DNA from: Nitrospinota bacterium
GTDB taxonomy: Bacteria; Nitrospinota; Nitrospinia; UBA9942
DNA length: 54,793 nucleotides
NCBI GenBank assembly: GCA_003489165.1
Contig: DNJG01000007.1
Span: forward strand, 1 to 54,793
Direction of reading: 5' to 3'
Below are positions 13,172 through 31,919 of the stretch, piece by piece. Both the position numbers and the translations under genes were made by a program. Each line of letters opens with the position of its first letter. The first letter of the stretch is position 1. A model generated the notes under the pieces. It did no database searches. It was not told the DNA's origin and saw nothing but the letters and a program-made list of their open reading frames with translations.

Positions 13172-13204
13172 TTTAAGATTGAATATTTATAAAGTCTCCT
13201 ATAA

Positions 13205-13237
13205 TTTTCAATTTTCAGTCTTCAATCTTCAATCAAG
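13205..13237. repeat. Tandem heptamer array TYTTCAR x4.5 abutting the PiT start codon
   Basis: TTTTCAA TTTTCAG TCTTCAA TCTTCAA TCAAG, followed directly by the ATG at 13238. A complementary AAGATTGAA lies at 13175-13183. Confidence 0.75.
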
Positions 13238-15874: not shown

Positions 15875-16393
15875 TTAAAATCTATTCAGTATGTCCTCTA
15901 TAAGTTTTTTGTTCAATTCACCCTTAAATTTTTCCTTTATCCTCCCTTCACGGTCAATGAAAAATGTAACCGGCAGCCCAATCACTCCATAATCCATTGA
16001 TACCTTCAGATCAGAGTCTATAAGTATAGTAAATTCTACCCCTTTTTCTGATATAAATTTTTTGACCCTGTCATAACTTTCATTGTAATTTATACCTATA
16101 ACCTCAATACCCTCACCCTTTCTATTATTATAAACCTCTTGTAAGAGAGGCATCTCATTGACACAGGGCGGACACCATGTTGCCCAAAAATTGAGCATAA
16201 CCTTTTTACCTTTGTAATAATCAAGGTTTATAGCCTTTTTGCTTAAATCGGTCAAGGCAAAGTTAGGTGCATAGCTACCAATATTTACATTAGTGTTCTC
16301 ATTATCCCTTTTACATCCTGATATTATTATTGCCAAAAGAAAAATAATGAAGAAAGCAATTTGATTATGCCTGCCGAATTTATCTTTATTCAT
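15875..16393 (-). CDS. TlpA/ResA-family periplasmic thiol:disulfide oxidoreductase (lipoprotein)
   Basis: FWATWCPPCVNEMP thioredoxin motif. Signal peptide with lipobox IISGC. Confidence 0.85.
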   Translation of the reverse strand: MNKDKFGRHNQIAFFIIFLLAIIISGCKRDNENTNVNIGSYAPNFALTDLSKKAINLDYYKGKKVMLNFWATWCPPCVNEMPLLQEVYNNRKGEGIEVIGINYNESYDRVKKFISEKGVEFTILIDSDLKVSMDYGVIGLPVTFFIDREGRIKEKFKGELNKKLIEDILNRF

Positions 16394-19353
16394 CTATATC
16401 CTGCCTTTGAAATATTCTTTATCTTCTCTATCTCGGAATTTATTAAATTCCTCTCCTGTTCTGTAATTTTTAATCCAAGTCCTCTGCTGTAATAGTCCAT
16501 AGCCTTCATTAGGTCAATCTCATAATATGTATATATGCTCCCCAAATTCAGATAAGGACTAAAATATTTTCCATCAAGTGTTATAGCATATTCAAATTCA
16601 TTTACAGCCCTTTTTATATCTTTTTTAGACAGGAATAAAAGTCCTCTGAGATTATAAAGCTGTGGCGTAAACTCATTGTCTCTGTCTAACCCTATACATT
16701 CATTTATAAGCTCAAATCCTTTATCTATCTCTCCTGTAGAAAGAATCCTGTATATACTGTTAATGTTTAAATTTATAAGCTCATATCTTGCATCTGTATT
16801 TTCACTATTAATTTCAGCCGCTTTTCTAAAACTATATACTGCATCCTCAAGGCTGTTATCGTTTACACCAACCTGCCCTTTTAAAAAATAAGTGTAAGAA
16901 TTAAAATATTTTTCTATTTCTTCACCTTTGTTTGAGTCCAAATCTCGGACTAATCCTTTTACAGATTTCCGATATTTCAGCATATTCAGCAGATTCTTCC
17001 CCTTTATAGATGTCCCAACATGATGAATCCTCGGTGCTGTAAATTCTACATAGGGGTTATTATCAGTAACAATAGGAACTCCATCAATAAATTTATGTAA
17101 ATCTTCTTCATCCATCATAAATGTAGAGAGGAGTTGAAATGGATTGAATATTCCTATCTCTTTCAGACTTTCCTGTATCTTTTTATTATTAAGCCTTTCC
17201 CTGAAATTCTCAAAATCTATTGCCAATTTTTTATCAGAACCTATCATAATTGCATCCCATTTTGTAAACCACATTGTGGAATGCGGAAATACAGACACAA
17301 AAGTTGAAACCAGCATCTTAAAATCATCTTCTGAAAGATGATGAAGGGGTATCCAATGAGATACCATTCCGCCCTCTTTAAGACGGGATTTACAGAGCAT
17401 ATAATACTCCCTGCTGTAGAGATTCACAATACCTGCATTTGACGGCGGGGGGGGTTCTGATGTGATAAGGTCAAATTTTTTATCTGTTGTCAGCAGAAAA
17501 TTTCTCCCATCCTCAATAATCATTTTAAATCTGCTGTTATTAAGTATGTCCCTGTTTCCATCAGAGAAATATCTGCCGCCGTTGAATACCTCTCTTGATA
17601 TATCTACTGCATATATCTCACTGACATTGTGGTCACCGACAGCCCCTGCCGTTGAACCAGTTCCAAAACATATAATCAGTGCATCCTTTGGGTCAGGATG
17701 GAATAAGAGGGGGAGATGCGCCTGAAGCCTCTCAAGTTGTAATGCACCCCTGAATTCACCTGCAATAGGGTCTCCATTTATCCAGAGCCTCTTTACAGGT
17801 TTTCTAAAGGGGGTAAGGTCTGTCTCCTGAGATGAGACAAGGACAGTCCCTGCTATCCCTTCTTTATAATAAAGTATTTCATTCCCTTTATCTATCTTCC
17901 CGATGCTGATTAATTTTGGAATATCTCCCGTTCTTAATATAAAAATAATAATGATAACACTGATAGTAATAGATAATATGGAAATAAAATATCGGGCAAT
18001 GCTTCTTTTGCTTATATAAATCAGGATAATACCAAATAGAAGGGGAATAGCTCCTGTCCATATGATAGATTTCTGTATTCCTATGAGGGGAAGAAGTATA
18101 AAGCCTGCAGAAAAAGAACCTATTATTGCACCTATAGTATTAATCAGATATACCTTTCCTATACCTTTCCCGATATCTTTCATCTCAAATTTCAGGGTTT
18201 GAGCTACTGCAGGAAAACTTGCTCCCATTAATAGTGTAGGAATAATCATTATGAAAAATGCCATTAAAAAGGTTGCAAACATTCTCCCTTGCCAATGTCC
18301 GATACCAACAAATTGTGATGCCCATGAAATGAAGTTATTGAGCTGAGAGGCAATGAAATTGTGATTTGCAAACAGAAGGAGAGATAAAAATCCCATCAGA
18401 CCAATCAAAATTTGAAAGACTGCAAAAATGGTTACCAAGTTCTCACTTTTAAAAAATTTAGGTCTTAAATTCCGAAATCTAAAATCCGAAATCCAAAATC
18501 CAAATATAAGGCTCCCACCTGCTATACCGAGGAGAAATGTAAATAGGATTATTGAAAACGCATATATGGTATTATCCAGAATCAGTATAAGAACCCTTGT
18601 CCATAACACCTCATAGGAGAGTGCCGCCATTCCTGAGAAACCAAAGGCAAGAAGGATTAAGGTCGATAGTTGGGAGTTGGGAGTTGGGAGTTTTGAATCT
18701 TGAGTTTTTAGTTCTGACTTCTGACTTCTGACTTCTGACTTCTGACTTATTATATACGCCCCTCCCCCTGCAATTAAATTCAAGAGGGCAGCTGAATAAA
18801 GCGATTGTGTAACACCAATAACCTCTATCAGGTAAAAACCTGTAATAATACATCCTGCAACTGCCCCGAAGGTATTTAAGGAATATATAACTCCTGTATC
18901 AACCCCTATTTTGTTCTCACTCTTTATAAGAAATCTTGATATAACAGGAAGCGTCCCCCCCATCATAGTTGTTGGAAATATCAGGATTAAAGAAGATATT
19001 AGAAATCTTTCTGCAGAGAGAAGTAAAAAGCTTCCCCCTGTTAATACATGAAGTTTTACATACAGCCATTCTGTAAGTGAAAAAATATTTGGCAATAAGA
19101 TAGCGTATAAACCTATTAGAATCTCAAGAAGTGCATATACCTTCAGAGGATTCCCCCTCTTATCTATGAGTCTGCCAAAGATATATCCCCCTATACCAAG
19201 CCCTGCCATAAATACGGTAAGTACAGTGCTTATTGCAAATGAGGATACACCAAATACGAGTGAAAGGAGGCGGGTCCAGACGATTTCATAGATAAGCCCT
19301 GAGGCGCCTGATAGGAAAAATATGAGGAGGATTAAAGGTCTTGCATAGTTCAT
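16390..19353 (-). CDS. Fused polytopic membrane / spermidine-synthase-like (SAM-MTase fold) / TPR protein
   Basis: 987 aa. The N-terminus (FFLSGASGLIYEIVWTRLLS) is typical of fused MFS-like spermidine synthase proteins. A central aminopropyltransferase-like block (ICFGTGSTAG, DLITSEPPPP) is followed by C-terminal TPR-like repeats. Confidence 0.7.
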   Translation of the reverse strand: MNYARPLILLIFFLSGASGLIYEIVWTRLLSLVFGVSSFAISTVLTVFMAGLGIGGYIFGRLIDKRGNPLKVYALLEILIGLYAILLPNIFSLTEWLYVKLHVLTGGSFLLLSAERFLISSLILIFPTTMMGGTLPVISRFLIKSENKIGVDTGVIYSLNTFGAVAGCIITGFYLIEVIGVTQSLYSAALLNLIAGGGAYIISQKSEVRSQKSELKTQDSKLPTPNSQLSTLILLAFGFSGMAALSYEVLWTRVLILILDNTIYAFSIILFTFLLGIAGGSLIFGFWISDFRFRNLRPKFFKSENLVTIFAVFQILIGLMGFLSLLLFANHNFIASQLNNFISWASQFVGIGHWQGRMFATFLMAFFIMIIPTLLMGASFPAVAQTLKFEMKDIGKGIGKVYLINTIGAIIGSFSAGFILLPLIGIQKSIIWTGAIPLLFGIILIYISKRSIARYFISILSITISVIIIIFILRTGDIPKLISIGKIDKGNEILYYKEGIAGTVLVSSQETDLTPFRKPVKRLWINGDPIAGEFRGALQLERLQAHLPLLFHPDPKDALIICFGTGSTAGAVGDHNVSEIYAVDISREVFNGGRYFSDGNRDILNNSRFKMIIEDGRNFLLTTDKKFDLITSEPPPPSNAGIVNLYSREYYMLCKSRLKEGGMVSHWIPLHHLSEDDFKMLVSTFVSVFPHSTMWFTKWDAIMIGSDKKLAIDFENFRERLNNKKIQESLKEIGIFNPFQLLSTFMMDEEDLHKFIDGVPIVTDNNPYVEFTAPRIHHVGTSIKGKNLLNMLKYRKSVKGLVRDLDSNKGEEIEKYFNSYTYFLKGQVGVNDNSLEDAVYSFRKAAEINSENTDARYELINLNINSIYRILSTGEIDKGFELINECIGLDRDNEFTPQLYNLRGLLFLSKKDIKRAVNEFEYAITLDGKYFSPYLNLGSIYTYYEIDLMKAMDYYSRGLGLKITEQERNLINSEIEKIKNISKAGYR
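18668..18748. repeat. In-frame heptamer arrays (TTGGGAG x3 and CTTCTGA x5) inside the 987-aa gene
   Basis: AGTTGGGAGTTGGGAGTTGGGAG at 18668-18690 and TTCTGAC x5 at 18712-18748. Together they encode ...QKSEVRSQKSELKTQDSKLPTPNSQLST... Confidence 0.9.
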
Positions 19354-19357
19354 AAAA

Positions 19358-19425
19358 AGTTTCAGAATATCAAAGTGTCAAAGTGTCAAAGACTTTTAAC
19401 TCTGATACTCTGAAACTTTGACACT
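19358..19425. repeat. Inverted tandem-octamer hairpin (TCAAAGTG x2.5 ... CTTTGACAC)
   Basis: AGTTTCAGAATATCAAAGTGTCAAAGTGTCAAAG ... CTCTGAAACTTTGACACT, between the propeller gene and the 987-aa gene. Confidence 0.75.
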
Positions 19426-20551
19426 ATTTCTTTAATATCTCCTCCGGCGGGCTCACCTTAACTTTCAAATCTGACTTTTTTGATATGCTTCCGATTTTAG
19501 ACAAATTCAGCTTGCCTATCTTATTTCCTGACATCATTGTAAACCATATGTTATTTTTTAAATCTGCCGTTATTGCAAGCGGCTGACTATCCTTCATCGG
19601 TATATCGTATTCTTTAAAAATTTCTGAATCAGGGTCAAATCTTACAATCTTGTTTTCATATCTCAAGGCAAGCCAAATATTATTCTCTTTATCTATAGCC
19701 ATACGCTGCGCCCCCTTTTTCCCCGGAATTGGAAAGTCCTTGAATTCACCCGTGGCGGGATTAAGTCTTACCAGCTTTTTGTCCTTCAGCCTGCAAAACC
19801 ATACATTCCCTTTTGAATCAATTGCAGTGCCTATAGGCATACTCAATGGCTGTTTTAGTTCATACTCCTTGAATTTTCCATTTTCATGATTTATCATTCC
19901 AATTTTGTTTCCACCCTTTTGAACAAACCACATATTTCCTTTTGAATCACTGGCGAGACCTGATGACTGGCTCATGGGGGTAGGGATATCATATTCCTTA
20001 AACCTCTCCTTAATCCCCTCTTTTTGAGAAGAGGGTGGGGTAAACTTAGTTATTTTATTTCTGTTCCACTCTACAAACCATACATTGCCCTTTGAATCTG
20101 CCGATATAGAGGCAGGATTACTCTGTGGAACCCGAAGGTCAAACTCCTCAAACTCCAATGTCCGTGTATTAAACTTTCCAAGCTGATTGCCTTCCTGCTC
20201 CGTGAACCACAGGTTATTATCTTTATCTATTGTCATATCCGTAGATTCACTTTTAGTTGTAGGTATCTCAAACTCCTCAAAGATATTTTTTGAAGGGTCC
20301 AACTTTCCAATCTTATTTGCACTATATTCCAGGACCCATACGATACCAGAACGGTCTACAGCAATATCAGTCGGAGAACTTAAAGGGGTAAGAATGGGAA
20401 ATTCTTCAAAAGGGGTATCTTCGGAGGCAAAGGCAAGAAAAACAGAAGACAGAAGACAGAAGACAGAGAACAGAGAACAGAGAACAGAGGACAGAAGAAA
20501 AACTCTAACTTCTGACTTCTGACTTCTGACTTCTGACTTCTTATTTCTCAT
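19424..20551 (-). CDS. Secreted Vgb (streptogramin-lyase-like)/NHL-type beta-propeller protein
   Basis: Repeated blades of the form D..GN.WF.E...NKIGK......F.EY.IP. The likely start is the ATG at 20551, which overlaps the upstream stop (ATGA) and gives MRNKKSEVRSQKSEVR + hydrophobic core + AFA|SE. The tracked start at 20629 lies inside the upstream gene. Confidence 0.65.
   Translation of the reverse strand: MRNKKSEVRSQKSEVRVFLLSSVLCSLFSVFCLLSSVFLAFASEDTPFEEFPILTPLSSPTDIAVDRSGIVWVLEYSANKIGKLDPSKNIFEEFEIPTTKSESTDMTIDKDNNLWFTEQEGNQLGKFNTRTLEFEEFDLRVPQSNPASISADSKGNVWFVEWNRNKITKFTPPSSQKEGIKERFKEYDIPTPMSQSSGLASDSKGNMWFVQKGGNKIGMINHENGKFKEYELKQPLSMPIGTAIDSKGNVWFCRLKDKKLVRLNPATGEFKDFPIPGKKGAQRMAIDKENNIWLALRYENKIVRFDPDSEIFKEYDIPMKDSQPLAITADLKNNIWFTMMSGNKIGKLNLSKIGSISKKSDLKVKVSPPEEILKK
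20443..20540. repeat. Heptamer arrays (CAGAAGA x3, CAGAGAA x3, ... then CTTCTGA x4-5) that encode the signal peptide of the 19424-20551 gene
   Basis: Read directly: CAGAAGACAGAAGACAGAAGACAGAGAACAGAGAACAGAGAACAGAGGACAGAAGA ... CTTCTGACTTCTGACTTCTGACTTCTGACTTC. Confidence 0.9.
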
Positions 20552-21855
20552 ACTGCCTTTTTCTTTACAAAAACCAAAGCTGATATGACAACAACCACTA
20601 TGAGCAGTATGCCTGATATATAAACCCATAAAGGCACTTTACCACCAACTGCCGATTTCTGCATCTCTTCTGCATACCTTTTATCCCCTTCCGAGTGTTC
20701 ATGTTTGTGTGCCTCATGAATTTCAGGAACAGAAGAAATAACTAATTGTCCAATCTTATTTGCCCCTCTCTCATTCTCTGTAAACCATATATCCCCTTTT
20801 GAATCTATAGCCATATTCATAGGCTGGGAATTTATTGTTGGTATGTCAAAATCGTGGAATGATGCAGAATGCGGCTCAAAGTAGCCTATTTTATTCATCA
20901 TATCATCTATATACCAAAGCCTCCCTGTTTTATCAAATATGATGCTCTGCGGAACGCTATTATAACCGGGGAGTACTGCCTCACTCATCATACCCGTTGA
21001 CGGGACAAGCATTGTAACCTTGTGGCTGTGAAGCTGTGGAAACCATATATTTTTTGAGTTGTCAATCAATATCTTACCCGGTCGGCTTAGAGGGGTAACT
21101 ATCGGAAATACCTTATAGGTTTTGGTCTTTGGGTTAAACCTTCCTATCTCATTCATTGCCACATCGCTAATCCAGATATTGTCTTCTTCATCTACTGCAA
21201 TGCCTGCGGGATGACTACTGGATTTAAGGTCATATTCAACAACCTTCTTTATCTTAAAGTCAAGCTTTCCGATTTTACCGCTATTCCATTCAATAAACCA
21301 CACATTACCCTCTGAATCCAGTGCTAAGTCATTGGGACTGCTCTGTGGTGTCGGTATATCATATTCTACAAATTTTTCTGTGGATGGTTCAAAACTGCCG
21401 ATTTTATTGCCAATCTGCTCCACAAACCATAATTTGTCATTTTTATCTATAATAATGGCGCCCGGACTGCCAAGAGATACATCATAAACCTCTTTTGGAG
21501 GGGTTTTTTCTGTAGGTGAATATTTCCAGTTACTCTTTGGAATTGATGCCGTAGATGGTATCTGATATTCTTTGAAGGTCTGATTTACAGGATCAAATTT
21601 AACTATCTTATTTGTAACCTGTGCTGTAAACCAAATATTATCTTTTGAGTCAACCACTATCCCGAATGGATGGCTGTAAGGGGTTGGGATTACATATTCA
21701 TTAATTACAGGTCCTTCGCCATTTCTTGCAGAAGGAGCAATTTTGGTATCCCCATGCATTGAATGCTGTCCCTGTTCGTCTCCCGTAGATATATTAACAA
21801 GGAGATATAAAAATAGAAATGCAAACAATAAGAATATTTTTTTAAATGGATTCAT
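20548..21855 (-). CDS. Vgb/NHL-type beta-propeller protein with N-terminal signal peptide, His-rich linker and C-terminal membrane anchor
   Basis: 435 aa with the same blade repeat as its neighbour. It has an HSMHGD motif after the signal peptide, then EIHEAHKHEHSEGD followed by a TM helix (LWVYISGILLIVVVVISALVFV) and KKKAV. Confidence 0.65.
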   Translation of the reverse strand: MNPFKKIFLLFAFLFLYLLVNISTGDEQGQHSMHGDTKIAPSARNGEGPVINEYVIPTPYSHPFGIVVDSKDNIWFTAQVTNKIVKFDPVNQTFKEYQIPSTASIPKSNWKYSPTEKTPPKEVYDVSLGSPGAIIIDKNDKLWFVEQIGNKIGSFEPSTEKFVEYDIPTPQSSPNDLALDSEGNVWFIEWNSGKIGKLDFKIKKVVEYDLKSSSHPAGIAVDEEDNIWISDVAMNEIGRFNPKTKTYKVFPIVTPLSRPGKILIDNSKNIWFPQLHSHKVTMLVPSTGMMSEAVLPGYNSVPQSIIFDKTGRLWYIDDMMNKIGYFEPHSASFHDFDIPTINSQPMNMAIDSKGDIWFTENERGANKIGQLVISSVPEIHEAHKHEHSEGDKRYAEEMQKSAVGGKVPLWVYISGILLIVVVVISALVFVKKKAV

Positions 21856-21880
21856 AGAAAAGTAATAGGATTTGAAAATT

Positions 21881-21935
21881 CAAGGGTTCGAGGGTTCCAG
21901 TAAAGCACTTGACCCCTTGACCCCTTATACCCTTA
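21881..21935. repeat. Inverted tandem-octamer hairpin (CAAGGGTT/CGAGGGTT ... GACCCCTT x2, ATACCCTT)
   Basis: Read directly; imperfectly complementary arms between the subunit IV/heme c gene and the propeller gene. Confidence 0.7.
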
Positions 21936-21942
21936 TCTTTTA

Positions 21943-22635
21943 TTACCATGTAAATGTCGGTTCATACATATGACGCATCTGCCAGTTGGCGTCTTTATAT
22001 GTTTCTGCTCCGGCAAGGTCATAAGTCTTTTCCCCTGTTGTTTCATCAATACTTACCATCTTCCCTGCCTTATACTTGGCACTTTTTATCTGTCTTGCCC
22101 TGTCAACTTGATAATATTCTGCCACATTAACAGGCGGTGTATACATCCTGTGTCCCATTGATGAGTTATGACAGGCATCACATCCAAGAATCTTTGCCTG
22201 ATAACCGCTCTTAAAAGTAATGCCTGCTAAAAATACTGCTATGAGCAGGACAGGGGTATTGAATACTAATTTACTAAAAAAGCCCATTGGCTCTTTATTG
22301 CCGGGATTAACCTCTGCCTTTCGTTTAAATGGTATCCTAATAAACGGCAGAAAGATTAGAAAGAACAAAAAAATGAATGGGACAATTGCACTATAAGCAA
22401 GCAAATGTTTAGTTTCACCCGTAAAATACCAGAATGGCTGCCAGAGAAGCAAAAAATACCATTCAGGTCCTGGTATATATTGTCCATCATCAGGACCAGG
22501 GATAATAGCAGGTGCATCGTCAGGAACCTGAAATTTTATTGCAAGAATAACCACTACAATTAATATTATAATCGCCAGCGAGCCTGCCTTTAATACATGA
22601 TGGGGCCACCAGGTTTTTTGTTTGGTTTCTTTCAT
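21943..22635 (-). CDS. Cytochrome b C-terminal (subunit IV-like) domain fused to a mono-heme c domain
   Basis: 230 aa with the Qo-site PEWY motif (GPEWYFLLLWQPF), TM helices and one CxxCH (CDACH). SD GGAGGGAGA upstream. Confidence 0.75.
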   Translation of the reverse strand: MKETKQKTWWPHHVLKAGSLAIIILIVVVILAIKFQVPDDAPAIIPGPDDGQYIPGPEWYFLLLWQPFWYFTGETKHLLAYSAIVPFIFLFFLIFLPFIRIPFKRKAEVNPGNKEPMGFFSKLVFNTPVLLIAVFLAGITFKSGYQAKILGCDACHNSSMGHRMYTPPVNVAEYYQVDRARQIKSAKYKAGKMVSIDETTGEKTYDLAGAETYKDANWQMRHMYEPTFTW

Positions 22636-22654
22636 TTTAGTATCTCCCTCCTAT

Positions 22655-22775
22655 GAAAAAATCTAATTAAACCACTGAGACACTGAGGCACAGAGAAAAA
22701 CTTACAACCTGCAACTGTTGTCCGTTGTTTGTTGTCGGTTCTTCATCTCCGTGTCTCCGTGCCTCTGTGGTAATT
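22655..22775. repeat. CACTGAG/CACAGAG-type palindromic repeat, copy D, between the two cytochrome b halves
   Basis: AACCACTGAGACACTGAGGCACAGAG ... CTCCGTGTCTCCGTGCCTCTGTGG. Confidence 0.8.
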
Positions 22776-22802
22776 TTTTTCTTTTTTAATTTTGAATTCT
22801 CT

Positions 22803-23426
22803 TTATAATGGCTCTGCTACACCTAACTTCCTTACCATCTTAAAATGAAAAATCAAGATAAACAATACAATGGCGGGGAGCACCCATACATGAATGACAA
22901 AACTCTTGCCTATTGTAAATGCTGAGATAAAGGGTATAATTAAACGCTCACCAATGATTGGTATTGTGCCAAACCAGTCTGCCCATACAACCAACTCCCA
23001 GTAACTCCTCCAATCCCATGGAAGTGTAATACCTGTCCCCATAAAGAGAAACATAAGCAAGAAGAGTAATATTCCCGACCACCAGTTCAATTCTCTCGGA
23101 CTTTTATATGCCCGTCTTGTAATAACATTAACTGTATGGATGAACAGGAATGCAACAATGAGGGTTGCACTCCATCTGTGCATGTTCCTCATTAATCCTC
23201 CATAGGGAATATTATTACAAAGATATTTTATGCTATCCTGTGCCTTTTCTGCAATTGGAACATAAAAAAACATCATAAATACGCCTGAAAAGACTTGAAG
23301 AACTATTAGAAAAAATGCAAGTCCCCCGAAACAAAACCAGAAATTTGCATGGGAAGGTACTGGATAATTTAACTGTTTAACGATTCGTTCTTTGATACCT
23401 GTTCTTTCATTTAACCATTTAATCAT
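22803..23426 (-). CDS. Cytochrome b6-type cytochrome b (N-terminal four-helix domain)
   Basis: 207 aa. Bis-His pairs are H-x13-H (HRWSATLIVAFLFIH) and H-x14-H (HVWVLPAIVLFILIFH). NFWFCFGG matches the b6/Firmicute motif whose Cys carries heme ci. SD GAGGAGAA upstream. Confidence 0.85.
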   Translation of the reverse strand: MIKWLNERTGIKERIVKQLNYPVPSHANFWFCFGGLAFFLIVLQVFSGVFMMFFYVPIAEKAQDSIKYLCNNIPYGGLMRNMHRWSATLIVAFLFIHTVNVITRRAYKSPRELNWWSGILLFLLMFLFMGTGITLPWDWRSYWELVVWADWFGTIPIIGERLIIPFISAFTIGKSFVIHVWVLPAIVLFILIFHFKMVRKLGVAEPL

Positions 23427-23473
23427 GACATTCTCCTCATTAATGTATGACTATAAATTGAACCTGAATTATA

Positions 23474-23612
23474 CATTAACCACAGATGAACACGGATAAA
23501 CACTGCTCAAACAAAAAACTATTATAATTCTTCCTTCACTTAAAAAGTAAAATATATTTTTCTTTTAATTCATTGAATAATCTGTGTTAATCTGTGTTTA
23601 CCTGTGATTTCA
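23474..23612. repeat. CCACAGA-type palindromic repeat, copy E
   Basis: TTAACCACAGATGAACACGGATAAACACTG ... AATCTGTGTTAATCTGTGTTTACCTGTGATTTCAC. Confidence 0.75.
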
Positions 23613-23635
23613 CGCATTATTTGGGTTTATATTTT

Positions 23636-24094
23636 TTATCCCTCTTTTTTAAAACTCTCCTCATCCTTTGTCTCAGCCATAAAGTCTATCTTCCACCTTT
23701 TTTCCTTCTCATCAAGAATCAGATGAGTCTGACTCTTTGATACAAACGGACTGCCTAAAATAGAGGGTATAGTATATTCAACCGTTACCTTTGCAATTAT
23801 ATTCCCTTTAGCATCTCTTTTATTTAATATTGAACTATCAAGGATTTTTATCTTTGTGTCGGGGTCAAACTGCTCTGTCCATCTTCTAAAAGTATCCTCT
23901 TCAATCTCCTCATATTTTGTGCTTATCAGTTTACGAGCCTCTGCGGCGGCAGCCTTGCCTTTCTGGGACAATAAAAAATAAAATCTCTTAACAACCTCTT
24001 CAGGGGGTTCTTTTGGCAAATCAGCCTGAGACCAACTGCAACCTATTAAATTAGATATTAAGACTGCCAATATTATTGAAATGACTTTATTCAT
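23636..24094 (-). CDS. Lipoprotein of unknown function
   Basis: 152 aa with a signal peptide and lipobox (LISNLIGC). I recognise no catalytic motif. Confidence 0.6.
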   Translation of the reverse strand: MNKVISIILAVLISNLIGCSWSQADLPKEPPEEVVKRFYFLLSQKGKAAAAEARKLISTKYEEIEEDTFRRWTEQFDPDTKIKILDSSILNKRDAKGNIIAKVTVEYTIPSILGSPFVSKSQTHLILDEKEKRWKIDFMAETKDEESFKKEG

Positions 24095-24269
24095 AAGAAC
24101 CGTTTATTATTTAATAAAGAACATCTGATATTACATCTGTCATATATAATATTTATGATTAAAATCATATAACAGATATTTTAGTCTGAAATTTATTTAA
24201 TTCTCCGCTAAAATGTAAGTGTTATAATATTATTATCTATACAAAAATGTCAATAATAATCTTAAAACA

Positions 24270-24304
24270 ATAAAGAAAGGGGTTAGGATTTAACTCCTAA
24301 CCCC
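24270..24304 (-). terminator. Rho-independent terminator after the NosZ-like gene
   Basis: On the minus strand, GGGGTTAGGAG-TTAAA-TCCTAACCCC is followed by TTTCTTTATT. Confidence 0.7.
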
Positions 24305-24344
24305 TTCCATTCAAACTGCCCTGAAAAAACTTAATCCTCGAAAT

Positions 24345-26144
24345 TTATATCGCAGGCTCATTACCCTCTTTAAGTGTATTCAACAGCCTATTGCCGCCTG
24401 TGATAAATTCCCTCTCTTCTGGATCTCCAAGCTGATATTCAAGTTTTGACATCTCATCATAATCCCCGACGGAGAGTGATGCTGTTCCTCCCGGTGGGTC
24501 AACAAAGAATGTCCCTCTCATTTCAAGGTGGAGTGGTCCGCAGAACTGCTGGCAGTAGAATTCAAATTCACCTGCCTTATCAGCAATGAATTCTCCTACG
24601 CCTGACATACCCCTTACTCCGTCTATCCTTGTCTTCTGGCCATAATATCCTGCTGGCAAGAATCCCATAGTAACATCAGGATTCTTTGTAAGACCTGCTG
24701 CCTTATCAATGTTTGTAAGGATTATTCTTACCTTTGCACCCTTTTTAACATGGATAAACCTTGGGATATACCCATAGCTGAATGCCTTTATCCTTACTAC
24801 AGTGACATCCCCTTCCTGGGTTACACCTGGCTTTCCATCATCCCTCGGGATAAAATATCTCTTTGCACCAGCAAGATGAAGCGGCTCTAATGACGGCCTC
24901 TTTGTCAGGCTTCTGCCCGGAGTATTTTTATCATCAAAGCTGACCTTTACATCCCCCAGCTCATAACCCTTGGCAAACAAGTCACCACCCGTACCTGTAT
25001 TCCATCTCTGGATAGTGGTAGAGAATATCTGCCTGCCTTCATGCGGCTCTCCATTTATTGGAACAATTTTTACACTCTTTCCATAGGTTGGAGAGAGTTC
25101 ATCAATATCCTGCTCCTCAAAATTAATCGCAAATACTATACCTGTCGGATTGAAAAGACCTGTGGAGAACTTATTCTGAGATACATAGTAATGGTCATCA
25201 GGTGAAATTGAATTGTGTCCCACCCTGTAGTGGATTGGGAACTCATCAACCATCTGCATTCTGCCAAGGTCAACCTTACAGGTTGAGTCAGAAACAAAGC
25301 TGCTTATATAGTTATACTTTCCATAGGAATCAGGCTGATTGTGAAGAGGGCCTGCACCAACTGGAATAACCCTATGAACCTTTAACTGCCTCACATCAAT
25401 AACAGACTGAGTTGCAGAAAGCTTATCACAAACTACAGCCCATCTGTTCGTCGGCACAAAATTGGTTCCATGCGGGTTCTTACCGACCGGGATTTCCTTT
25501 ATAAATTTAAAAGGGTCCTGGCTGAAGACCATAACCGCACTGTGATAATAGTTACCTGCAAATACATATTTTCCATCCTTGCTTGCATCAGGATAGTCAG
25601 GTGCGCTTGGTGCCGGTGGCACATCAATTACTGTTGTTGCACCATCCGCAACCCTCATCTTTGCCATCTTGCCTGAAAGCTCGCCTGTTAGAAATATATA
25701 TTTACCATTCGGACTCATTGCTGCTGAGTGGTGAATACCAAATGGTTTTGGATTTGCAAGAATCCTCTCTGCAAAACCAGTTTGTAAATTCAACTCAATA
25801 ACTGCATCTGCACCCTTGTCTGATACCCAGAGAAACTTTCCATCAGGTGTTCCGTTGTTGTTACCGGCATTTGAACCGCTGAATGGGAAGTTGTGCATAT
25901 CAACGCCCATTTTAATATATCTGTAAACCTTCATACTTGGGATACCAATAACACCGATATTCCCGTCATGTCCGCCAGCCTCATAGAGCATTGCATAATC
26001 TCTCAGAGGCGAGTCGCTGTCCTGAGGTGCTATTACCTGCCAATCCCTCTGGTCAGCAGGCGTAAGCTCCGTCTTACGGGCTTCTGCTATCCCTGCTAAA
26101 AATAATACTGCTAAAATTAAGGCTAAAAAGCCCTTTTTATTCAT
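24345..26144 (-). CDS. Nitrous-oxide-reductase-like protein: Sec signal, beta-propeller, C-terminal CuA-type cupredoxin; divergent metal ligands
   Basis: GGHDGNIGVIGIPSM resembles the NosZ N-terminus. His-containing blades are FGIHHS, NPHGTNF, GPLHNQ, VGHNS and EPHEG. C-terminal YCQQFCGPLHLEM matches the CuA CxxxCxxxHxxM motif. Strong SD GGAGGTGA upstream. Confidence 0.7.
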   Translation of the reverse strand: MNKKGFLALILAVLFLAGIAEARKTELTPADQRDWQVIAPQDSDSPLRDYAMLYEAGGHDGNIGVIGIPSMKVYRYIKMGVDMHNFPFSGSNAGNNNGTPDGKFLWVSDKGADAVIELNLQTGFAERILANPKPFGIHHSAAMSPNGKYIFLTGELSGKMAKMRVADGATTVIDVPPAPSAPDYPDASKDGKYVFAGNYYHSAVMVFSQDPFKFIKEIPVGKNPHGTNFVPTNRWAVVCDKLSATQSVIDVRQLKVHRVIPVGAGPLHNQPDSYGKYNYISSFVSDSTCKVDLGRMQMVDEFPIHYRVGHNSISPDDHYYVSQNKFSTGLFNPTGIVFAINFEEQDIDELSPTYGKSVKIVPINGEPHEGRQIFSTTIQRWNTGTGGDLFAKGYELGDVKVSFDDKNTPGRSLTKRPSLEPLHLAGAKRYFIPRDDGKPGVTQEGDVTVVRIKAFSYGYIPRFIHVKKGAKVRIILTNIDKAAGLTKNPDVTMGFLPAGYYGQKTRIDGVRGMSGVGEFIADKAGEFEFYCQQFCGPLHLEMRGTFFVDPPGGTASLSVGDYDEMSKLEYQLGDPEEREFITGGNRLLNTLKEGNEPAI

Positions 26145-26172
26145 TTATTTTCACCTCCATTCCCTTTTAAAA

Positions 26173-26592
26173 TCATGGCTCATGCCCAAAATATACCCCT
26201 GCCTTCATATCTGACTCTAACCTCTTAATCATGTAATCATCTGGATTCAGGATGCTTATCTTCCTTGCCAGCCATTTACCATCTTTGGGCCATCCATGAA
26301 CCTCTGCAAGAGTCCCCTCTTTCAACTCAGCAAATTTCTTGAATGCACCTCTCTCTGATGGATCCTTTGTTGTCTTTACCTGAATCTGACACTCATCCTG
26401 CATATTGAGCTTCCATGTCTTTGGGGTCTTCTCAAATTTTGTTGTAAGCTCAATAACCCTTGCACCCCTGTCAATCTTTGTGATTGTCCCTATATATGAT
26501 GTATCATCAGGAAGAGACCCATCATAAGAGAAGGCTATGCCGCTGGAAAGAACAAACAATGAAATAACTATAATTGATAGATATTTTTTCAA
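26173..26592 (-). CDS. Small secreted protein of unknown function
   Basis: Signal peptide (KKYLSIIVISLFVLSSGIAFS). The likely start is the TTG at 26592, 8 nt after SD GGAGG; the tracked GTG at 26601 abuts the SD. Confidence 0.55.
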   Translation of the reverse strand: MKKYLSIIVISLFVLSSGIAFSYDGSLPDDTSYIGTITKIDRGARVIELTTKFEKTPKTWKLNMQDECQIQVKTTKDPSERGAFKKFAELKEGTLAEVHGWPKDGKWLARKISILNPDDYMIKRLESDMKAGVYFGHEP

Positions 26593-26863
26593 ATTTTTCA
26601 CCTCCTTTCATTTTTAAAATTAGTGATTAACGGATGTATAACTAAGCAAGATATATGCCACTGTCAAAAAAAAGTTAAAACCATATAACTATTTGATATT
26701 TATAGCTATTCATTCAGGCATCTCAAACTAAAATAGTAGAAATATCACATTAATGTTACACATTAAAATAAAGATATTTGAAACCTATTGAATTTATAGA
26801 ATAATGTTATTCTCAAATAAATACAGATTTGTCACTTTAATGTTACAATCCTATTAAACATCT

Positions 26864-27604
26864 TTATTTTAGCGGTTTTAAGGGATGAAATATGTCCGAA
26901 ATAGTTACATCAATATCAAAGGCATCCTTCAACAATTCGCTTGCTATTATCTCATGCGGCTCGCCAGATGCTATCAACATGCCATCTTTAACTATATATA
27001 CACAATCAAACTGAAATGCCATATTTATATCATGTAAAGCCATAACAACAGATATATTCTTAATATCTCTAAGGTTCCTGAGCAATCTTATCAACTCTAT
27101 CTGATACTTAATATCAAGGTTTGCGAGAGGTTCATCAAGAAGTAAAATCCCTGCCCCCTGAAGCAGTGTCATAGCTATAAAGACCCTCCTCCTCTCGCCG
27201 CCGCTTAACTCCGTTATGAAAGAATCTGTTTTTTCGCCAAGGCCAACCATTTTTATAGCCTCTTCAGGTGATAGCTGAGGGAGGATGTCATAAGGATAAA
27301 GTCCCATACTGACAAGTTCCCTCACCCTGAATGGGACATTAATATCAAGCATCTGCGGAAGATAACTTAGGAGCTTTGCCCTGTCTTTTCCCTTATACTG
27401 ATGGAGCGGTTTATTCCACAAGTTTATCTCTCCCATTTGAGGCGCAAGAATCCCCGCCGATAGTTTTAGTAATGTGGACTTCCCTGAGCCGTTTGCCCCT
27501 AACAGGCCAATGAACTCCCCGCCATTAACGGATATTGAGAGGTCTTTTATAAATCCTTTTCTGTTGTATGAAAATGAAATTTTCTTTAAATCAAGTATTC
27601 CCAC
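26864..27604 (-). CDS. btuD: ABC transporter ATP-binding protein, FecE/BtuD family
   Basis: Walker A GANGSGKST, signature LSGGERRR, Walker B ILLLDEP. GTG start lies directly after the permease stop. Confidence 0.85.
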   Translation of the reverse strand: MGILDLKKISFSYNRKGFIKDLSISVNGGEFIGLLGANGSGKSTLLKLSAGILAPQMGEINLWNKPLHQYKGKDRAKLLSYLPQMLDINVPFRVRELVSMGLYPYDILPQLSPEEAIKMVGLGEKTDSFITELSGGERRRVFIAMTLLQGAGILLLDEPLANLDIKYQIELIRLLRNLRDIKNISVVMALHDINMAFQFDCVYIVKDGMLIASGEPHEIIASELLKDAFDIDVTISDIFHPLKPLK

Positions 27605-27605
27605 C

Positions 27606-28565
27606 CTACACCCCCATTATCTCCCTTTTCCTTAAAAGATAAAGGAAGTATGGTGCGCCAATTATAGCAGTAATAATCCCTGCTGGAATTTCTGTCGGCG
27701 ATACAATTGTCCTGCCGATTGTATCTGCCATACACAAAAAAGTCCCTCCAACCAAGGCAGACAGGGGCAATAGAAATCTGCAATCAGAACCAACGAAAAA
27801 CCTGATTATGTGAGGTATCAGAAGCCCTATAAAACCTACAACACCGCCTAATGATACGGATGATGCAGTCATAAGCCCTACTGAAATAAACAAAATCAAT
27901 CTTTCTTTAAATGGAGAAAAACCAAGGCTGTAGGCAATCTCGTCTCCCAGTATCAGTGCATTTAAACCCTTTACCCGCCAGATGGAAAGCAGAAAACCTG
28001 CAAAGATAAAAATTAATCCATATGGAATCAGCGACCAATCTGCCATTGATAAATCTCCAAATATCCAAAGCATCGCCCTTTTTAATCCCTCATCCGCAGA
28101 GATGCTCATAAGAAGCATAAGGATTGAAGAAAAGAGAAAACCTATTCCAATACCTGCAAGTAGTAATCTCTCAGGGAGAAGCCCTCCCCTTTTATATCCC
28201 ATAATACCAACTGCAATGCCGGTAGAAATTGCACCAATAAAGGCAAGCAATGGAATTGTAAAGAGTCCAAATATAATTTTTCCAAATATAAGACCTGCGG
28301 CAGCCGTCAGTGTTGCACCGCTTGATATGCCAAGTATATAGGGGTCTGCAAGTGGATTTCTAAGAAGCCCTTGAAGTATAGCCCCTGATACACCAAGGGC
28401 TGACCCCATAAGTATAGAAACGATAACACGCGGAAGCCTTATTGAGAAAATGATTTGACTGCCTGTGTCATCCAGATTGAATGGGTTAATAAACTTTGGC
28501 CATATAAAGACAGAAACAAACAATATGCAGATAGAGACAATAATCAATAATATAATCTTTCTCAT
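27606..28565 (-). CDS. btuC: FecCD/BtuC-family ABC permease
   Basis: 319 aa polytopic protein with typical FecCD motifs (RLPRV, NPLADPYILGISSGA, GAPYFLYLL). Confidence 0.88.
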   Translation of the reverse strand: MRKIILLIIVSICILFVSVFIWPKFINPFNLDDTGSQIIFSIRLPRVIVSILMGSALGVSGAILQGLLRNPLADPYILGISSGATLTAAAGLIFGKIIFGLFTIPLLAFIGAISTGIAVGIMGYKRGGLLPERLLLAGIGIGFLFSSILMLLMSISADEGLKRAMLWIFGDLSMADWSLIPYGLIFIFAGFLLSIWRVKGLNALILGDEIAYSLGFSPFKERLILFISVGLMTASSVSLGGVVGFIGLLIPHIIRFFVGSDCRFLLPLSALVGGTFLCMADTIGRTIVSPTEIPAGIITAIIGAPYFLYLLRKREIMGV

Positions 28566-28573
28566 TCTTTTTA

Positions 28574-29527
28574 TTACTTCTGGTTTCTTGCTTCTGGCTT
28601 CTGACCTCTATTTAAATACCCTTTCAACTCTTCAATCCCCTCTACTATCCTCGGTCCAAGCCTGTAAAGTGCATCACCCGTATAATAAACCCTCCCATTC
28701 TTTACAGCCTTAAGCATGCCAAGTTTTTCTAAAAGCCCTTTTGAGAGTTCCTTTGTATCAGCACCCATACTCTTTCCTATTAAAATGGCATTAGGTGAAC
28801 GATGTATAACCTCCTCAATTGAATATTTAGGATACCCTCCCACGACATCAGATGCAATATTCTCCCAGCCAAGCAATTGTAGGGCATCATCAATTGTTGT
28901 GCCATGTCCTGCTACAAGCAGAGGCTCGGGCCAGACAATAAAGAGAGCCTTTCCTTTAACTTCTGGCTTCTGACTTCCAGCTTCTGACTTCTGAAGTTTG
29001 TTTTCTATCTCTTCTGCAAGTTTATTCGCCCTTTCTCCTGCACCGAGGGTAATACCTAACTCCCTTATTCCTTCTGACAGTTCAGAAAGCCGCCTTGCCC
29101 TGAATACATAGGTCTGTATTCCAAGTTGTTTCAACCTCTCTTCAAACCCCTTTGGATTTCCATCTGTAGTCATTACAACAATATCTGGCTTCATAGAGAC
29201 AACGGCCTCAAGGGATGGATTAGACATACCTCCGATTTTAGGCTTCTCTTTTGCTCGAGGCGGGTAATCGCAGAAATTGGTTACCGCTAAAATCTTATCT
29301 TCAAGCTCAATGGCATAGAGAATCTCAGTGATGTTAGGTGCAAGTGATACAATTCTCTCAATGGGTGAGGAGAAAGCTGTGCTTGATAAAAATATAAATA
29401 TAATCAACCACAGAGAACCCAAAGAAAGAAAATAAAAAAATAAATTATATATATTGTCTAAAGAAAACCTGCTTCCTATTTGATTTAATATCTTTATTTT
29501 TCTCTGTGTCCTCTGTGGTAAATACAT
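28574..29527 (-). CDS. btuF: Periplasmic cobalamin/siderophore-binding protein (BtuF-like); start codon uncertain
   Basis: RIVSLAPNITEILYAIELEDKILAVTNFCDYP is typical of class III SBPs. The 5' ~120 nt run through repeat copy G. The C-terminal tail and an internal linker are encoded by CTTCTGR heptamers. Confidence 0.75.
   Translation of the reverse strand: MYLPQRTQRKIKILNQIGSRFSLDNIYNLFFYFLSLGSLWLIIFIFLSSTAFSSPIERIVSLAPNITEILYAIELEDKILAVTNFCDYPPRAKEKPKIGGMSNPSLEAVVSMKPDIVVMTTDGNPKGFEERLKQLGIQTYVFRARRLSELSEGIRELGITLGAGERANKLAEEIENKLQKSEAGSQKPEVKGKALFIVWPEPLLVAGHGTTIDDALQLLGWENIASDVVGGYPKYSIEEVIHRSPNAILIGKSMGADTKELSKGLLEKLGMLKAVKNGRVYYTGDALYRLGPRIVEGIEELKGYLNRGQKPEARNQK
29402..29524. repeat. 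CCACAGAG-type palindromic repeat, copy G, lying within the annotated 5' end of btuF
   Basis: AATCAACCACAGAGAACCC ... TTTCTCTGTGTCCTCTGTGGTAAAT. Confidence 0.8.
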
Positions 29528-29530
29528 AAA

Positions 29531-31519: not shown

Positions 31520-31624
31520 TTTTCCCTCCCTCGAGAAAATTTAGTTTGTTTTGGCAGAGTCTCTTGTTCGTGTTTTTAACCCATAACTCCGAACTCCAAA
31601 CTCTGAACTTGTTTTGGCTTGGAT

Positions 31625-31775
31625 AGGTCTTCCGGCTTAAGGGCTACCTACTTACCTGCCTTCCCATCATGGCATTACCCATGACAGTGGCATGTAGGTT
31701 TTCGTTCCCTTTTACGGCTGCGGGGCAGCGGAGGATTTTCACCTCTCTTCCCTGGCATCCAGCCACCAATAATTG
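31625..31775 (-). promoter_or_regulatory. Cobalamin (B12) riboswitch
   Basis: Minus strand reads ...GGTGGCTGGATGCCAGGGAAGAGAGGTGAAAATCCTCCGCTGCCCCGCAGCCGTAAAAGGGAACG...ATGCCACTGTCATGGG...GGGAAGGCAGG. This covers the conserved GGTGAAAATCC core and the B12 box GCCACTG. Confidence 0.85.
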
Positions 31776-31919
31776 TCTTTACTTCTTACTGTTTAAGTTA
31801 TCACCTCCTTCCACTAACACCGATTCACTGTTTTTATATTTAAACAGCTTTTTAATTTTTTTGTCAAGTTTTTTATCTCTTTTCCATTATGGTTTTTAAT
31901 GCCTGACCCCATAAATTGA

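Follow-up and report, generated by a model that had tools for sequence, protein, structure and literature searches.

How is a nitrous-oxide reductase supplied with electrons, and how are its copper centres assembled, when neither a Rieske protein nor the canonical nos accessory genes are encoded beside it? This question is raised by seven genes of contig DNJG01000007.1 in the Nitrospinota bacterium assembly GCA_003489165.1, of which we analysed a stretch of 54,793 nt (the window). We propose, with a probability of roughly 60%, that the locus is the Nitrospinota form of the clade III nosZ respiratory cluster, with two transcription units, an electron route lacking a Rieske protein and dedicated periplasmic partners of the enzyme. 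The enzyme family is already known; the interest of the locus is in its sharply defined set of partner genes and in a lineage-specific sigma-54 control. The visible DNA amounts to about 55 kb of the genome, and all absences reported for the window hold for that stretch.

The seven-gene locus

A preliminary description made from the sequence alone had listed seven genes on the minus strand. We found the seven open reading frames (ORFs) at 19424-26601, all on that strand and in the order described, with two starts corrected; the motifs quoted for the cytochromes and for propeller A were all found as well. In the order of transcription, the genes are:

26173..26592, minus strand: NOV5WD8W, a small Sec-exported protein of 139 aa from a TTG start (142 aa if GTG at 26601 is the start)
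24345..26144, minus strand: L-NosZ, 599 aa, with a Sec signal peptide, a 7-bladed propeller and a C-terminal cupredoxin domain (CuA-type)
23636..24094, minus strand: lipoprotein, 152 aa, lipobox LIGC, predicted NTF2-like alpha+beta cone
22803..23426, minus strand: cytochrome b6-like protein, 207 aa, four transmembrane helices, two bis-His haem sites, Cys32 as candidate haem ci ligand
21943..22635, minus strand: subunit IV-like/haem c fusion (subunit IV-c), 230 aa, three transmembrane helices and a C-terminal mono-haem c domain of about 80 aa (CDACH)
20548..21855, minus strand: propeller A, 435 aa, 7-bladed Vgb/NHL-type, with an N-terminal signal and a C-terminal transmembrane anchor
19424..20551, minus strand: propeller B, 375 aa, secreted and soluble, 7-bladed Vgb/NHL-type

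Both corrected starts come from the gene calls of 18 public contigs that encode an identical L-NosZ. Propeller B most likely starts at 20551 (MRNKK, 375 aa), in an ATGA overlap with the stop of propeller A. For the small secreted protein, the most likely start is a TTG at 26592 (139 aa), which GGAGGT precedes by 7-8 nt. The window belongs to an uncultured Nitrospinota bacterium from groundwater: an identical protein is encoded on an ENA scaffold of 151 kb, and loci that are 95% identical are present in NC_groundwater Nitrospinota metagenome-assembled genomes (MAGs). Pfam matched the 599-, 207-, 435- and 401-aa ORFs and was silent on the 142-, 152- and 230-aa proteins.

Identity of the enzyme

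The best NCBIfam model for the 599-aa protein is NF052460, the clade III lactonase-type nitrous-oxide reductase (582.5 bits, E 5e-175, profile positions 2-479 of 480). The canonical clade I/II models TIGR04244 and TIGR04246 (cutoff 625) reach only 109 and 154.7 bits. Pfam identifies a lactonase/YncE-type propeller (PF10282 Lactonase, 42.5 bits with a cutoff of 21.7; PF21783, 42.9 bits). Cupredoxin_1 gives 26.7 bits, marginally below its cutoff of 27, and in profile searches this part of the protein aligns with the CuA domains of NosZ and CoxB. The motifs GIHH (136), PHG (224), GPLH (265), EPH (366) and CQQFCGPLHLEM (531) are at positions invariant across 14 aligned homologues, and the protein fully passes the published motif filter, that is the criteria of He et al. 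2025 as quoted in the MiDAS preprint (10.64898/2026.07.10.737647).

In total, 232 homologues of L-NosZ were found, and the profile of the 14 aligned ones matches the solved structures of P. stutzeri NosZ with E 3e-35. In this profile search, residues H225, H268, H310 and H368 align with the CuZ ligands, which we take to be H326, H382, H433 and H494 of the P. stutzeri protein, and the Cys/Cys/His/Met set of CuA is in register. The HH pair at 138/139 aligns at P. stutzeri H178. Four additional histidines, H84, H201, H305 and H423, are invariant among the 14 homologues, and every family-invariant His, Cys or Met position is kept in the window protein.

NF052460 has an equivalog cutoff of 700 bits, which the window protein misses (582.5 bits), as do three further Nitrospinota-type homologues (602-653 bits); six homologues from Proteobacteria and Desulfobacterota score above it (722-804 bits). 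From its sequence, the window enzyme is assigned to clade III L-NosZ, as a member of a diverged Nitrospinota subclade of this known family.

The lactonase-domain NosZ-like clade was first pointed out in 2024, and the Nitrospinota MAG DRJW01 was placed in it (PMC11033732). DRJW01 corresponds to our locus L025, whose enzyme is 73% identical to that of the window. The reduction of N2O by clade III L-NosZ is reported by He et al. 2025 (Nature 646:152), as cited in PMC13477213, PMC13502197 and 10.64898/2026.07.10.737647. PMC13502197 and PMC13477213 name Nitrospinota among the clade III hosts, and PMC13477213 already reports that clade III lacks canonical accessory genes and has cytochrome genes nearby. 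The gene combination had first been taken for an undescribed system; its enzyme is in fact a clade III L-NosZ (PMC11033732), and its small protein already has a model of its own, NF052405. Nor is the claim that the module is self-contained demonstrable from 55 kb, and a Nitrospirota MAG with the lactonase-type enzyme has nosDFLYX elsewhere in its genome (PMC11033732).

Conservation of the gene neighbourhood

We fetched 80 genomic loci with L-NosZ relatives (numbered here with the prefix L) and scored all window proteins against them. Loci whose enzyme is at least 70% identical to that of the window are called Nitrospinota-type, while the enzymes of other phyla are 48-56% identical; only loci with enough flanking sequence enter the denominators. 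The gene order is near-invariant in 26 Nitrospinota-type loci: NOV5WD8W, L-nosZ, lipoprotein, cytochrome b6, subunit IV-c, anchored propeller A, soluble propeller B and, in eighth place, a gene for an MFS/spermidine-synthase fusion. The partner genes are present as follows:

NOV5WD8W: 25/25 Nitrospinota-type loci, 1/49 loci of other phyla
Lipoprotein: 24/24 Nitrospinota-type, 23/51 other phyla
Cytochrome b6: 21/22 Nitrospinota-type, 19/49 other phyla
Subunit IV-c: 20/20 Nitrospinota-type, 18/47 other phyla
Propeller A: 18/19 Nitrospinota-type, 22/44 other phyla
Propeller B: 17/18 Nitrospinota-type, 27/44 other phyla
MFS/spermidine-synthase fusion: 16/16 Nitrospinota-type, 0/35 other phyla

The string from L-nosZ through lipoprotein, b6, subunit IV-c and propeller A to propeller B also occurs in Nitrospirota, Desulfobacterota, Hyphomicrobiales, Rhodospirillaceae, Halieaceae, Sedimenticola and Magnetococcales, Alpha- and Gammaproteobacteria thus included. 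Order and content are kept over at least six phyla, even where the proteins are only about 30% identical. Of all partners, the propeller pair is retained most widely: some propeller is present in 26 of the 30 L-nosZ loci that have at least 9 kb on each flank.

The association was also analysed in reverse, by scanning metagenomes with a narrow alignment of propeller B, which returned 64 relatives. Those with at least 34% identity all lie among genes of the cluster, and L-nosZ is present wherever the upstream sequence extends for at least 6 kb, except in one pair of contigs (L106/L107). In that pair the lipoprotein gene is preceded not by L-nosZ but by an ABC-2/GldG-like/DUF4340 set and genes for a binding protein and for a cytochrome b of 403 aa. 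Relatives with at most 33% identity are single Vgb-like genes whose surroundings are unrelated. The seven genes are a conserved module and their adjacency is not fortuitous, because their order is conserved across phyla and the reverse test is exclusive. A lack of co-conservation in related genomes, which the preliminary description had named as a ground for abandoning its proposal, was not found in the 26 Nitrospinota-type loci or in the other phyla.

Outside Nitrospinota, L-nosZ clusters often contain further genes: a cytochrome c of about 315 aa, a protein of 167-180 aa and the set of an ABC-2 transporter, a GldG-like auxiliary protein and DUF4340, which is a possible analogue of NosFY. Others are a CydA-like protein with three c-type cytochromes, and a trio of Usp/PCP_red, radical-SAM/SPASM and FAD-oxidoreductase genes. 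None of these extra genes of other phyla (seen at L087 16483-21752, L088 1-9821 and 11833-21758, and in L036-L086) is in the window. The CydA-like module was considered as a clean substitute for b6/subunit IV-c and rejected, since five loci carry both.

Two genes follow propeller B in the window:

16390..19353, minus strand: MFS/spermidine-synthase-like/TPR fusion, a membrane protein of 987 aa (NF037959, 108.8 bits, above the cutoff of 40)
15875..16393, minus strand: ResA/TlpA-like thiol:disulfide oxidoreductase, periplasmic, with a WCPPC motif; its start overlaps the stop of the MFS fusion

The MFS fusion, which follows propeller B in Nitrospinota-type loci, is a lineage-specific eighth member of the cluster. 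A paralogue of it, 30-37% identical, lies directly upstream of NOV5WD8W in four loci (L008, L015, L017 and L025). The ResA/TlpA-like protein matches AhpC-TSA and Redoxin in Pfam and stays below the cutoffs of both the ResA model NF002854 (154.7 bits, cutoff 170) and TlpA (68 bits, cutoff 230). The preliminary description had pointed to this gene as a possible aid to CuA assembly. The gene is indeed there, but its adjacency is lineage-specific and limited to the closest relatives (L007, L018, L092 and L093); TlpA-like genes are found at other positions in L033, L034, L083, L084, L086, L095 and L103, some of them from Desulfobacterota and Nitrospirota.

The cytochrome pair and the Rieske question

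The b6-like protein carries NFWFCFGG with Cys32 and the His pairs H83-x13-H97 and H179-x14-H194. H83 and H97 are invariant, and Cys32 is present in 28 of 44 orthologues. PF00033 (cytochrome b/b6 N-terminal) matches with 135.7 bits, and the two His pairs conform to a dihaem cytochrome. The protein scores 174.1 bits against the cytochrome b6 model NF002990 (cutoff 325) and, on a level with this, 173.9 bits against the ExtP model NF040969 (cutoff 290), thus missing both cutoffs. ExtP is presumably the b-type cytochrome of a Rieske-less operon.

Subunit IV-c has PEWY at residue 57, within the first loop on the periplasmic side; its one CDACH, at 152, directly follows the third hydrophobic helix. 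All 40 orthologues share P57, E58, W59, C152, C155, H156 and H222, and 35 of them also have M160. The haem c domain ends with a strongly conserved YKDANWQxRHxYEPTFTW motif, and the topology puts it on the periplasmic side. The family comprises 135 proteins in a collection of 5.8 billion, and its named members come from lineages carrying L-nosZ.

In known complexes, the PEWY-type Qo motif works against a Rieske head, and the known operons for bc and b6f complexes include a gene for the Rieske protein. In the window, neither a Rieske protein nor NosR, NosD, NosF, NosY, NosL or NosB is encoded, as had been claimed: a six-frame motif scan gave no bc-type Rieske box, and none of NosD, F, Y, L, R and B is among the Pfam-annotated genes. 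A single loose CxH...CxxH match falls in a radical-SAM ORF and was rejected as a Rieske candidate. The Rieske box CxHxG[CA]...CxCH has 0 matches in six frames over 1,336,103 bp, which comprise 81 related loci and the window; nosDFYL and nosR are likewise lacking locally in these 81 loci. No other cytochrome c is encoded near L-nosZ in the window or in Nitrospinota-type loci, where the fused haem c is the only local donor. Because no Rieske head is near, the simplest interpretation would make the fused haem c both the high-potential acceptor of a Qo-like site and the electron donor of CuA.

Propellers, lipoprotein and NOV5WD8W

Both propellers match PF24684 (propeller A, 175.6 bits; propeller B, 212.1 bits), and their genes generally overlap across orthologues. 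Propeller A has seven blade motifs, HSMH at 31, HEAH and HEH at 380-387, and a hydrophobic anchor at residues 411-429; a C-terminal anchor is present in 26 of 33 orthologues. Against the Vgb(A) and Vgb(B) lyase models (NF000022 and NF000096) the two proteins reach 139-177 bits, far from the cutoff of 600, propeller A giving 153 and 139 bits respectively. No His or Glu is conserved across the propeller orthologues, which share the fold of streptogramin B lyase but not its identity; the conserved residues are structural only (W, P, G, D and N). Searching the literature for virginiamycin B lyase in connection with nosZ yielded no papers.

The His-rich tails of propeller A, from which the preliminary description had drawn a hint at a maturation function, are restricted to the closest relatives (L007, L018 and partly L011). 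As they are unconserved, we rejected the His/Met-rich tails as copper sites at the family level.

The 152-aa lipoprotein has no sequence match in Pfam, NCBIfam or the PDB. Its AF2 model (predicted local distance difference test, pLDDT, of 73; shallow alignment of close relatives only) gave NTF2-like proteins as best Foldseek matches (CaMKII hub, ARC6, SnoaL-like), with a weak E of about 0.04. It was considered as NosL and rejected on the absence of a family match, the conservation of the lipobox Cys only and the predicted NTF2-like fold. NOV5WD8W matches NCBIfam NF052405 (192.8 bits, E 2e-57, above the cutoff of 170) and has no Pfam match; no conserved metal-binding motif was found in it.

The constant association with L-nosZ argues for a dedicated role of the propellers, the lipoprotein and NOV5WD8W. 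From their sequences, we favour docking or scaffolding over direct copper binding for these proteins.

Candidate promoters and probable transcription units

The following candidate signals were identified upstream of NOV5WD8W and between L-nosZ and the lipoprotein gene:

26831..26846, minus strand: distal imperfect palindrome of 16-18 bp, GTAACATTAAAGTGAC, candidate upstream activator site for an enhancer-binding protein
26744..26759, minus strand: proximal copy of the palindrome, GTAACATTAATGTGAT, about 85 bp upstream of the -24/-12 element
26645..26660, minus strand: sigma-54-type -24/-12 element TGGCATATATCTTGCT (GG-N10-GC), 53 nt upstream of the NOV5WD8W start codon
24275..24308, minus strand: intrinsic-terminator-like hairpin with a 14-bp stem including 7 G-C pairs, followed by TTTATTGTTT; it starts 37 nt past the L-nosZ stop
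24224..24253, minus strand: weak sigma-70-like promoter match (TTGACA-18-TATTAT, 11/12) before the lipoprotein gene
24156..24167, no strand assigned: palindrome TGAT-N4-ATCA with half-sites of the FNR/CRP type, 62 nt before the start of the lipoprotein gene

The sigma-54 element is the only strict match in the window and is invariant in an alignment of 6 relatives. In 20 of 26 Nitrospinota-type loci, the 400 nt preceding NOV5WD8W contain a relaxed form of it, the background rate being 0.02 per 400 nt; of 51 other loci, 1 has such a form upstream of nosZ. A sigma-70-like TTGACA ahead of NOV5WD8W was rejected as a promoter, the conserved part being the overlapping sigma-54 box. The palindrome pattern has 4 matches in the window, both copies among them, for 1.0 expected; it is perfect in close relatives (GTAACATTAATGTTAC) and restricted to the closest group (L007-L011 and L018).

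Close relatives keep the hairpin after L-nosZ; in L011 one of its T-A pairs has become C-G, a compensatory change. A strong hairpin follows nosZ in 24/24 Nitrospinota-type loci and in 20/23 other loci (z at most -2 against shuffled sequences), the stems being unrelated in sequence. Given this terminator-like hairpin, NOV5WD8W is probably co-transcribed with L-nosZ, and the accessory genes probably make up a separate transcript. In canonical nos clusters, too, nosZ is transcribed apart from nosDFYL. As to the start of the second unit, the -35 part of the sigma-70-like match is found in the window and L009 only. The FNR-like box was rejected: it is kept in 5 close relatives only, and its 4 occurrences in the window against 2.2 expected are no enrichment.

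Near-identical 26-nt translation-initiation regions precede L-nosZ and NOV5WD8W (26148-26173 and 26595-26620; ATTTTAAAA..GGAGGTGAAAA on the coding strand), and a third, partial copy lies at 31735-31753.

Proposed electron route and alternative explanations

We propose that the first unit would run from the sigma-54 promoter through NOV5WD8W and the Sec-exported L-NosZ to the terminator hairpin. The second would comprise the lipoprotein, the b6-like protein, subunit IV-c and the anchored and soluble propellers, followed here by the MFS fusion and the ResA/TlpA-like protein. Together, the b6-like protein and the subunit IV-like protein with its invariant PEW would provide a Qo-like pocket in which quinol is oxidized. 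The fused haem c in the periplasm would accept the high-potential electron and hand it on to L-NosZ, first to its CuA-type centre and from there to its CuZ-type centre for the reduction of N2O to N2. The propeller pair and the lipoprotein would act as periplasmic partners of L-NosZ in docking, stabilization or copper-site assembly, standing where NosDFYL and NosR do in canonical clusters. The preliminary description had already suggested a b-type quinol module feeding a haem c and then CuA; the invariance of PEW and CxxCH in 40 orthologues makes this a reasonable route, which we retain as a proposal.

Several observations weigh against this scheme. With regard to the enzyme, the first CuA His (P. 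stutzeri H583) is replaced by Met493 ('DVTMGF') in all 14 aligned homologues, and the canonical CuZ pair H129/H130 falls in a gap, with no aligned counterpart in them. Met493 and the missing HH segment are traits of the L-NosZ family and not peculiarities of the window; the copper-site ligand sets of L-NosZ may thus differ from those of clades I and II. Since the Nitrospinota subclade lies below the 700-bit cutoff of NF052460, the activity of the clade is not tied to it, and N2O reduction there is predicted.

With regard to the partners, none of the 35 members of the subunit IV-c family that were searched matches Pfam, PF00032 included. An approximate hhalign comparison with PetD sequences is colinear but weak (E 0.007, probability 5%), and the family profile matches residues 231-312 of cytochrome b in the PDB at E 0.2-0.9, below spurious matches to G-protein-coupled receptors. 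The AF2 model is poor (pLDDT 62.6), and Foldseek gave no usable match with it. Homology of the 230-aa protein to subunit IV is therefore weakly suggested, by the motif, the topology, the gene order and the colinear hhalign match. Conserved His, Cys or Met residues are lacking in both propeller families, and the lipoprotein orthologues conserve the lipobox Cys and no other Cys, His or Met. Since the propellers and the lipoprotein have no conserved metal ligands, direct copper handling by them lacks support at the sequence level.

The cluster also varies. The Nitrospinota-type locus L029 (JAJDAS010000069.1) has L-nosZ, lipoprotein, b6 and subunit IV-c and no propellers within about 8 kb downstream. 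L-nosZ loci of the Gallionella, Nitrosomonadales and Zetaproteobacteria types have no b6/subunit IV-c beside nosZ and carry a CydA-like protein and c-type cytochromes instead. Finally, the terminator between nosZ and the accessory genes allows for their independent regulation.

A stronger form of the proposal is that b6, subunit IV-c, the propellers and the lipoprotein constitute one uncharacterized membrane machine dedicated to L-NosZ. It would oxidize quinol at a Qo-type site with no Rieske protein, whose part the fused haem c would play, and would dock or mature L-NosZ without NosDFYL or NosR. We put this forward only tentatively, as a possibility well short of even odds. If true, it would represent a second, independent way to wire and assemble an N2O reductase.

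The accessory genes might instead serve maintenance or maturation and keep the copper centres assembled or reduced, in a role like that of NosR/NosX or NosDFYL, with the respiratory electrons coming from soluble or other membrane cytochromes encoded elsewhere. The conserved hairpin would then separate them from L-nosZ as expected for helpers of low stoichiometry, and the wide retention of the propeller pair (26/30 loci) points the same way. Many L-nosZ loci without b6/subunit IV-c indeed keep a propeller together with other cytochromes, either the ~315-aa cytochrome c right after nosZ or the CydA-like protein with cytochromes c. However, the fused haem c is the sole local donor in the window and in all Nitrospinota-type loci, no metal ligands are conserved in the propellers and lipoprotein, and the ABC-2/GldG-like/DUF4340 set resembling NosFY is absent from the window. 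We consider this explanation doubtful.

It is also conceivable, though we judge it unlikely, that the b6-like protein and subunit IV-c are the core of an ordinary Rieske/cytochrome b complex, with the gene of its Rieske subunit at another place in the genome and the haem c equivalent to cytochrome c1/f as in Bacillus QcrC. The invariant PEW is the Rieske-partner motif of known complexes, the fusion of subunit IV with a cytochrome c is presumably the arrangement of QcrC, and our inspection covers 55 kb of the genome. On the other hand, bc-type Rieske boxes number 0 in the 1.34 Mb of the 81 loci and the window, and the b6-like protein scores well below the cytochrome b6 cutoff and equally with ExtP.

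That the Nitrospinota-type protein is a diverged L-NosZ paralogue that does not act on N2O but on another substrate, and that the module is some other copper redox system of the periplasm, appears very improbable to us. Its score under the equivalog cutoff, its identity of about 50-56% to the subclades that pass it and its subclade-specific insertions and deletions would agree with such a divergence. So would a context in which NOV5WD8W and the MFS fusion are present and the ABC-2 set, the 315-aa cytochrome c and the radical-SAM set are absent. Yet all family-invariant His, Cys and Met residues are kept, the published motif filter is passed, and the core of b6/subunit IV-c, propeller and lipoprotein is common to the passing subclades; Nitrospinota are moreover named as clade III hosts in PMC13502197 and PMC13477213, which cite the discovery study. 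A chance adjacency of unrelated genes to L-nosZ, to which the predicted terminator and intergenic gaps of 87-250 bp, long for an operon, might have pointed, is already refuted by conservation over at least six phyla to about 30% protein identity and by the exclusive reverse test, and we give it practically no weight.

Relation to known systems

L-NosZ is a recently recognized biological sink for the greenhouse gas N2O. The locus shares with other clade III clusters the enzyme family, the Sec-type export, the lack of canonical nos accessory genes and the proximity of cytochrome genes, and Nitrospinota are listed among the host phyla of the clade. It differs from clade III L-nosZ elsewhere in its score below the equivalog cutoff and in having NOV5WD8W, the MFS/spermidine-synthase fusion and the sigma-54 promoter. 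In comparison with Proteobacterial L-nosZ, it is without the ABC-2/GldG-like/DUF4340 set, the ~315-aa cytochrome c, the CydA-like module and the radical-SAM/Usp/FAD genes.

The clade II cluster of Wolinella, known from the work of Simon and co-workers, has the order nosZ-nosB-nosG-nosH-nosC1-nosC2 and includes a dedicated quinol dehydrogenase. Common to it and the present locus are a Sec-exported NosZ and, by our proposal for the present locus, a neighbouring membrane quinol module of its own and small c-type cytochromes leading to CuA. In contrast to clade II, the module here is b6/subunit IV-like and not NosGH (NrfCD-like), nosDFYL are absent and the propeller is lactonase-type.

With Bacillus QcrABC and the b6f complex, the pair shares a split cytochrome b, the H-x13-H and H-x14-H spacings, a candidate haem ci Cys and a subunit IV-like protein with PEWY, and with QcrC in particular the fusion of the subunit IV-like part to a C-terminal c-type cytochrome. 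It departs from them in the absence of a Rieske gene in 81 loci, a b6 score below cutoff, a subunit IV part that Pfam does not recognize and a haem c motif of its own. Geobacter ExtP, its equal-best NCBIfam match, is likewise a b6-like four-helix dihaem cytochrome b without co-encoded Rieske protein; here, however, the score is below cutoff, and where ExtP is accompanied by multihaem cytochromes and a porin, the b6-like protein is accompanied by L-NosZ, propellers and a lipoprotein.

The accessory unit occupies the same place as nosDFYL/nosR, downstream of nosZ and probably transcribed apart from it. No homology links the two, and the window encodes no beta-helix NosD, ABC-2 NosFY or NosL chaperone; the candidates to stand in for NosDFYL here are the pair of 7-bladed propellers and the lipoprotein with its predicted NTF2-like fold, in which metal ligands are not conserved.

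The co-inheritance of a partner set with the enzyme in more than 80 relatives frames the questions of electron supply and copper-centre assembly with a short list: the Rieske-less b6/subunit IV-haem c pair, the twin propellers and the lipoprotein, to which NOV5WD8W and the MFS fusion are added in Nitrospinota. The partner genes are better genomic markers than L-NosZ alone, and the subunit IV-c and lipoprotein families are without a current Pfam or NCBIfam model.

Repeats and other genes of the window

Nested inverted repeats with 21-nt arms (90% complementary) at 19356-19425 occupy the 70-bp gap between the genes of propeller B and the MFS fusion. An Rfam match to mir-2024 at 19351-19424 (28.8 bits, threshold 69) was rejected as a chance match to this hairpin.

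Tandem repeats of heptanucleotides, among them (TTCTGAC)n and (ACAGAAG)n, were found at 13203-13234, 18466-18509, 18668-18748, 20439-20548, 28577-28603 and 28959-28994. Several are in frame within ORFs, 21 nt encoding the 7 aa 'SEVRSQK', and they fall in the n-region of the propeller B signal peptide, in a loop of the MFS fusion and in the middle and C-terminus of a periplasmic binding protein. The called length of propeller B varies by 7 aa (375 against 368 aa) between near-identical contigs, and different repeats occupy the same N-terminal spot elsewhere, in L011 ('QLAIGS' twice) and L083. These repeats look like cyanobacterial short tandemly repeated repetitive (STRR) sequences or contingency repeats.

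By Pfam, the rest of the window encodes housekeeping functions, sulfate assimilation, tetrapyrrole synthesis and a TonB/ABC uptake operon controlled by a B12 riboswitch. This cobalamin riboswitch (Rfam RF00174, 83 bits, E 2e-19) at 31605-31777 on the minus strand lies directly upstream of the 5' neighbours of the N2O-reductase unit, the minus-strand genes at 26864-31519 that encode a TonB-dependent receptor and a BtuFCD-like ABC importer. Cobalamin is inactivated by N2O. The adjacency of the cobalamin operon and L-nosZ, kept in one close relative only (L009), is probably coincidental. Genes for a tetrapyrrole methylase, HemD and HemB diverge from the cobalamin operon on the opposite strand.

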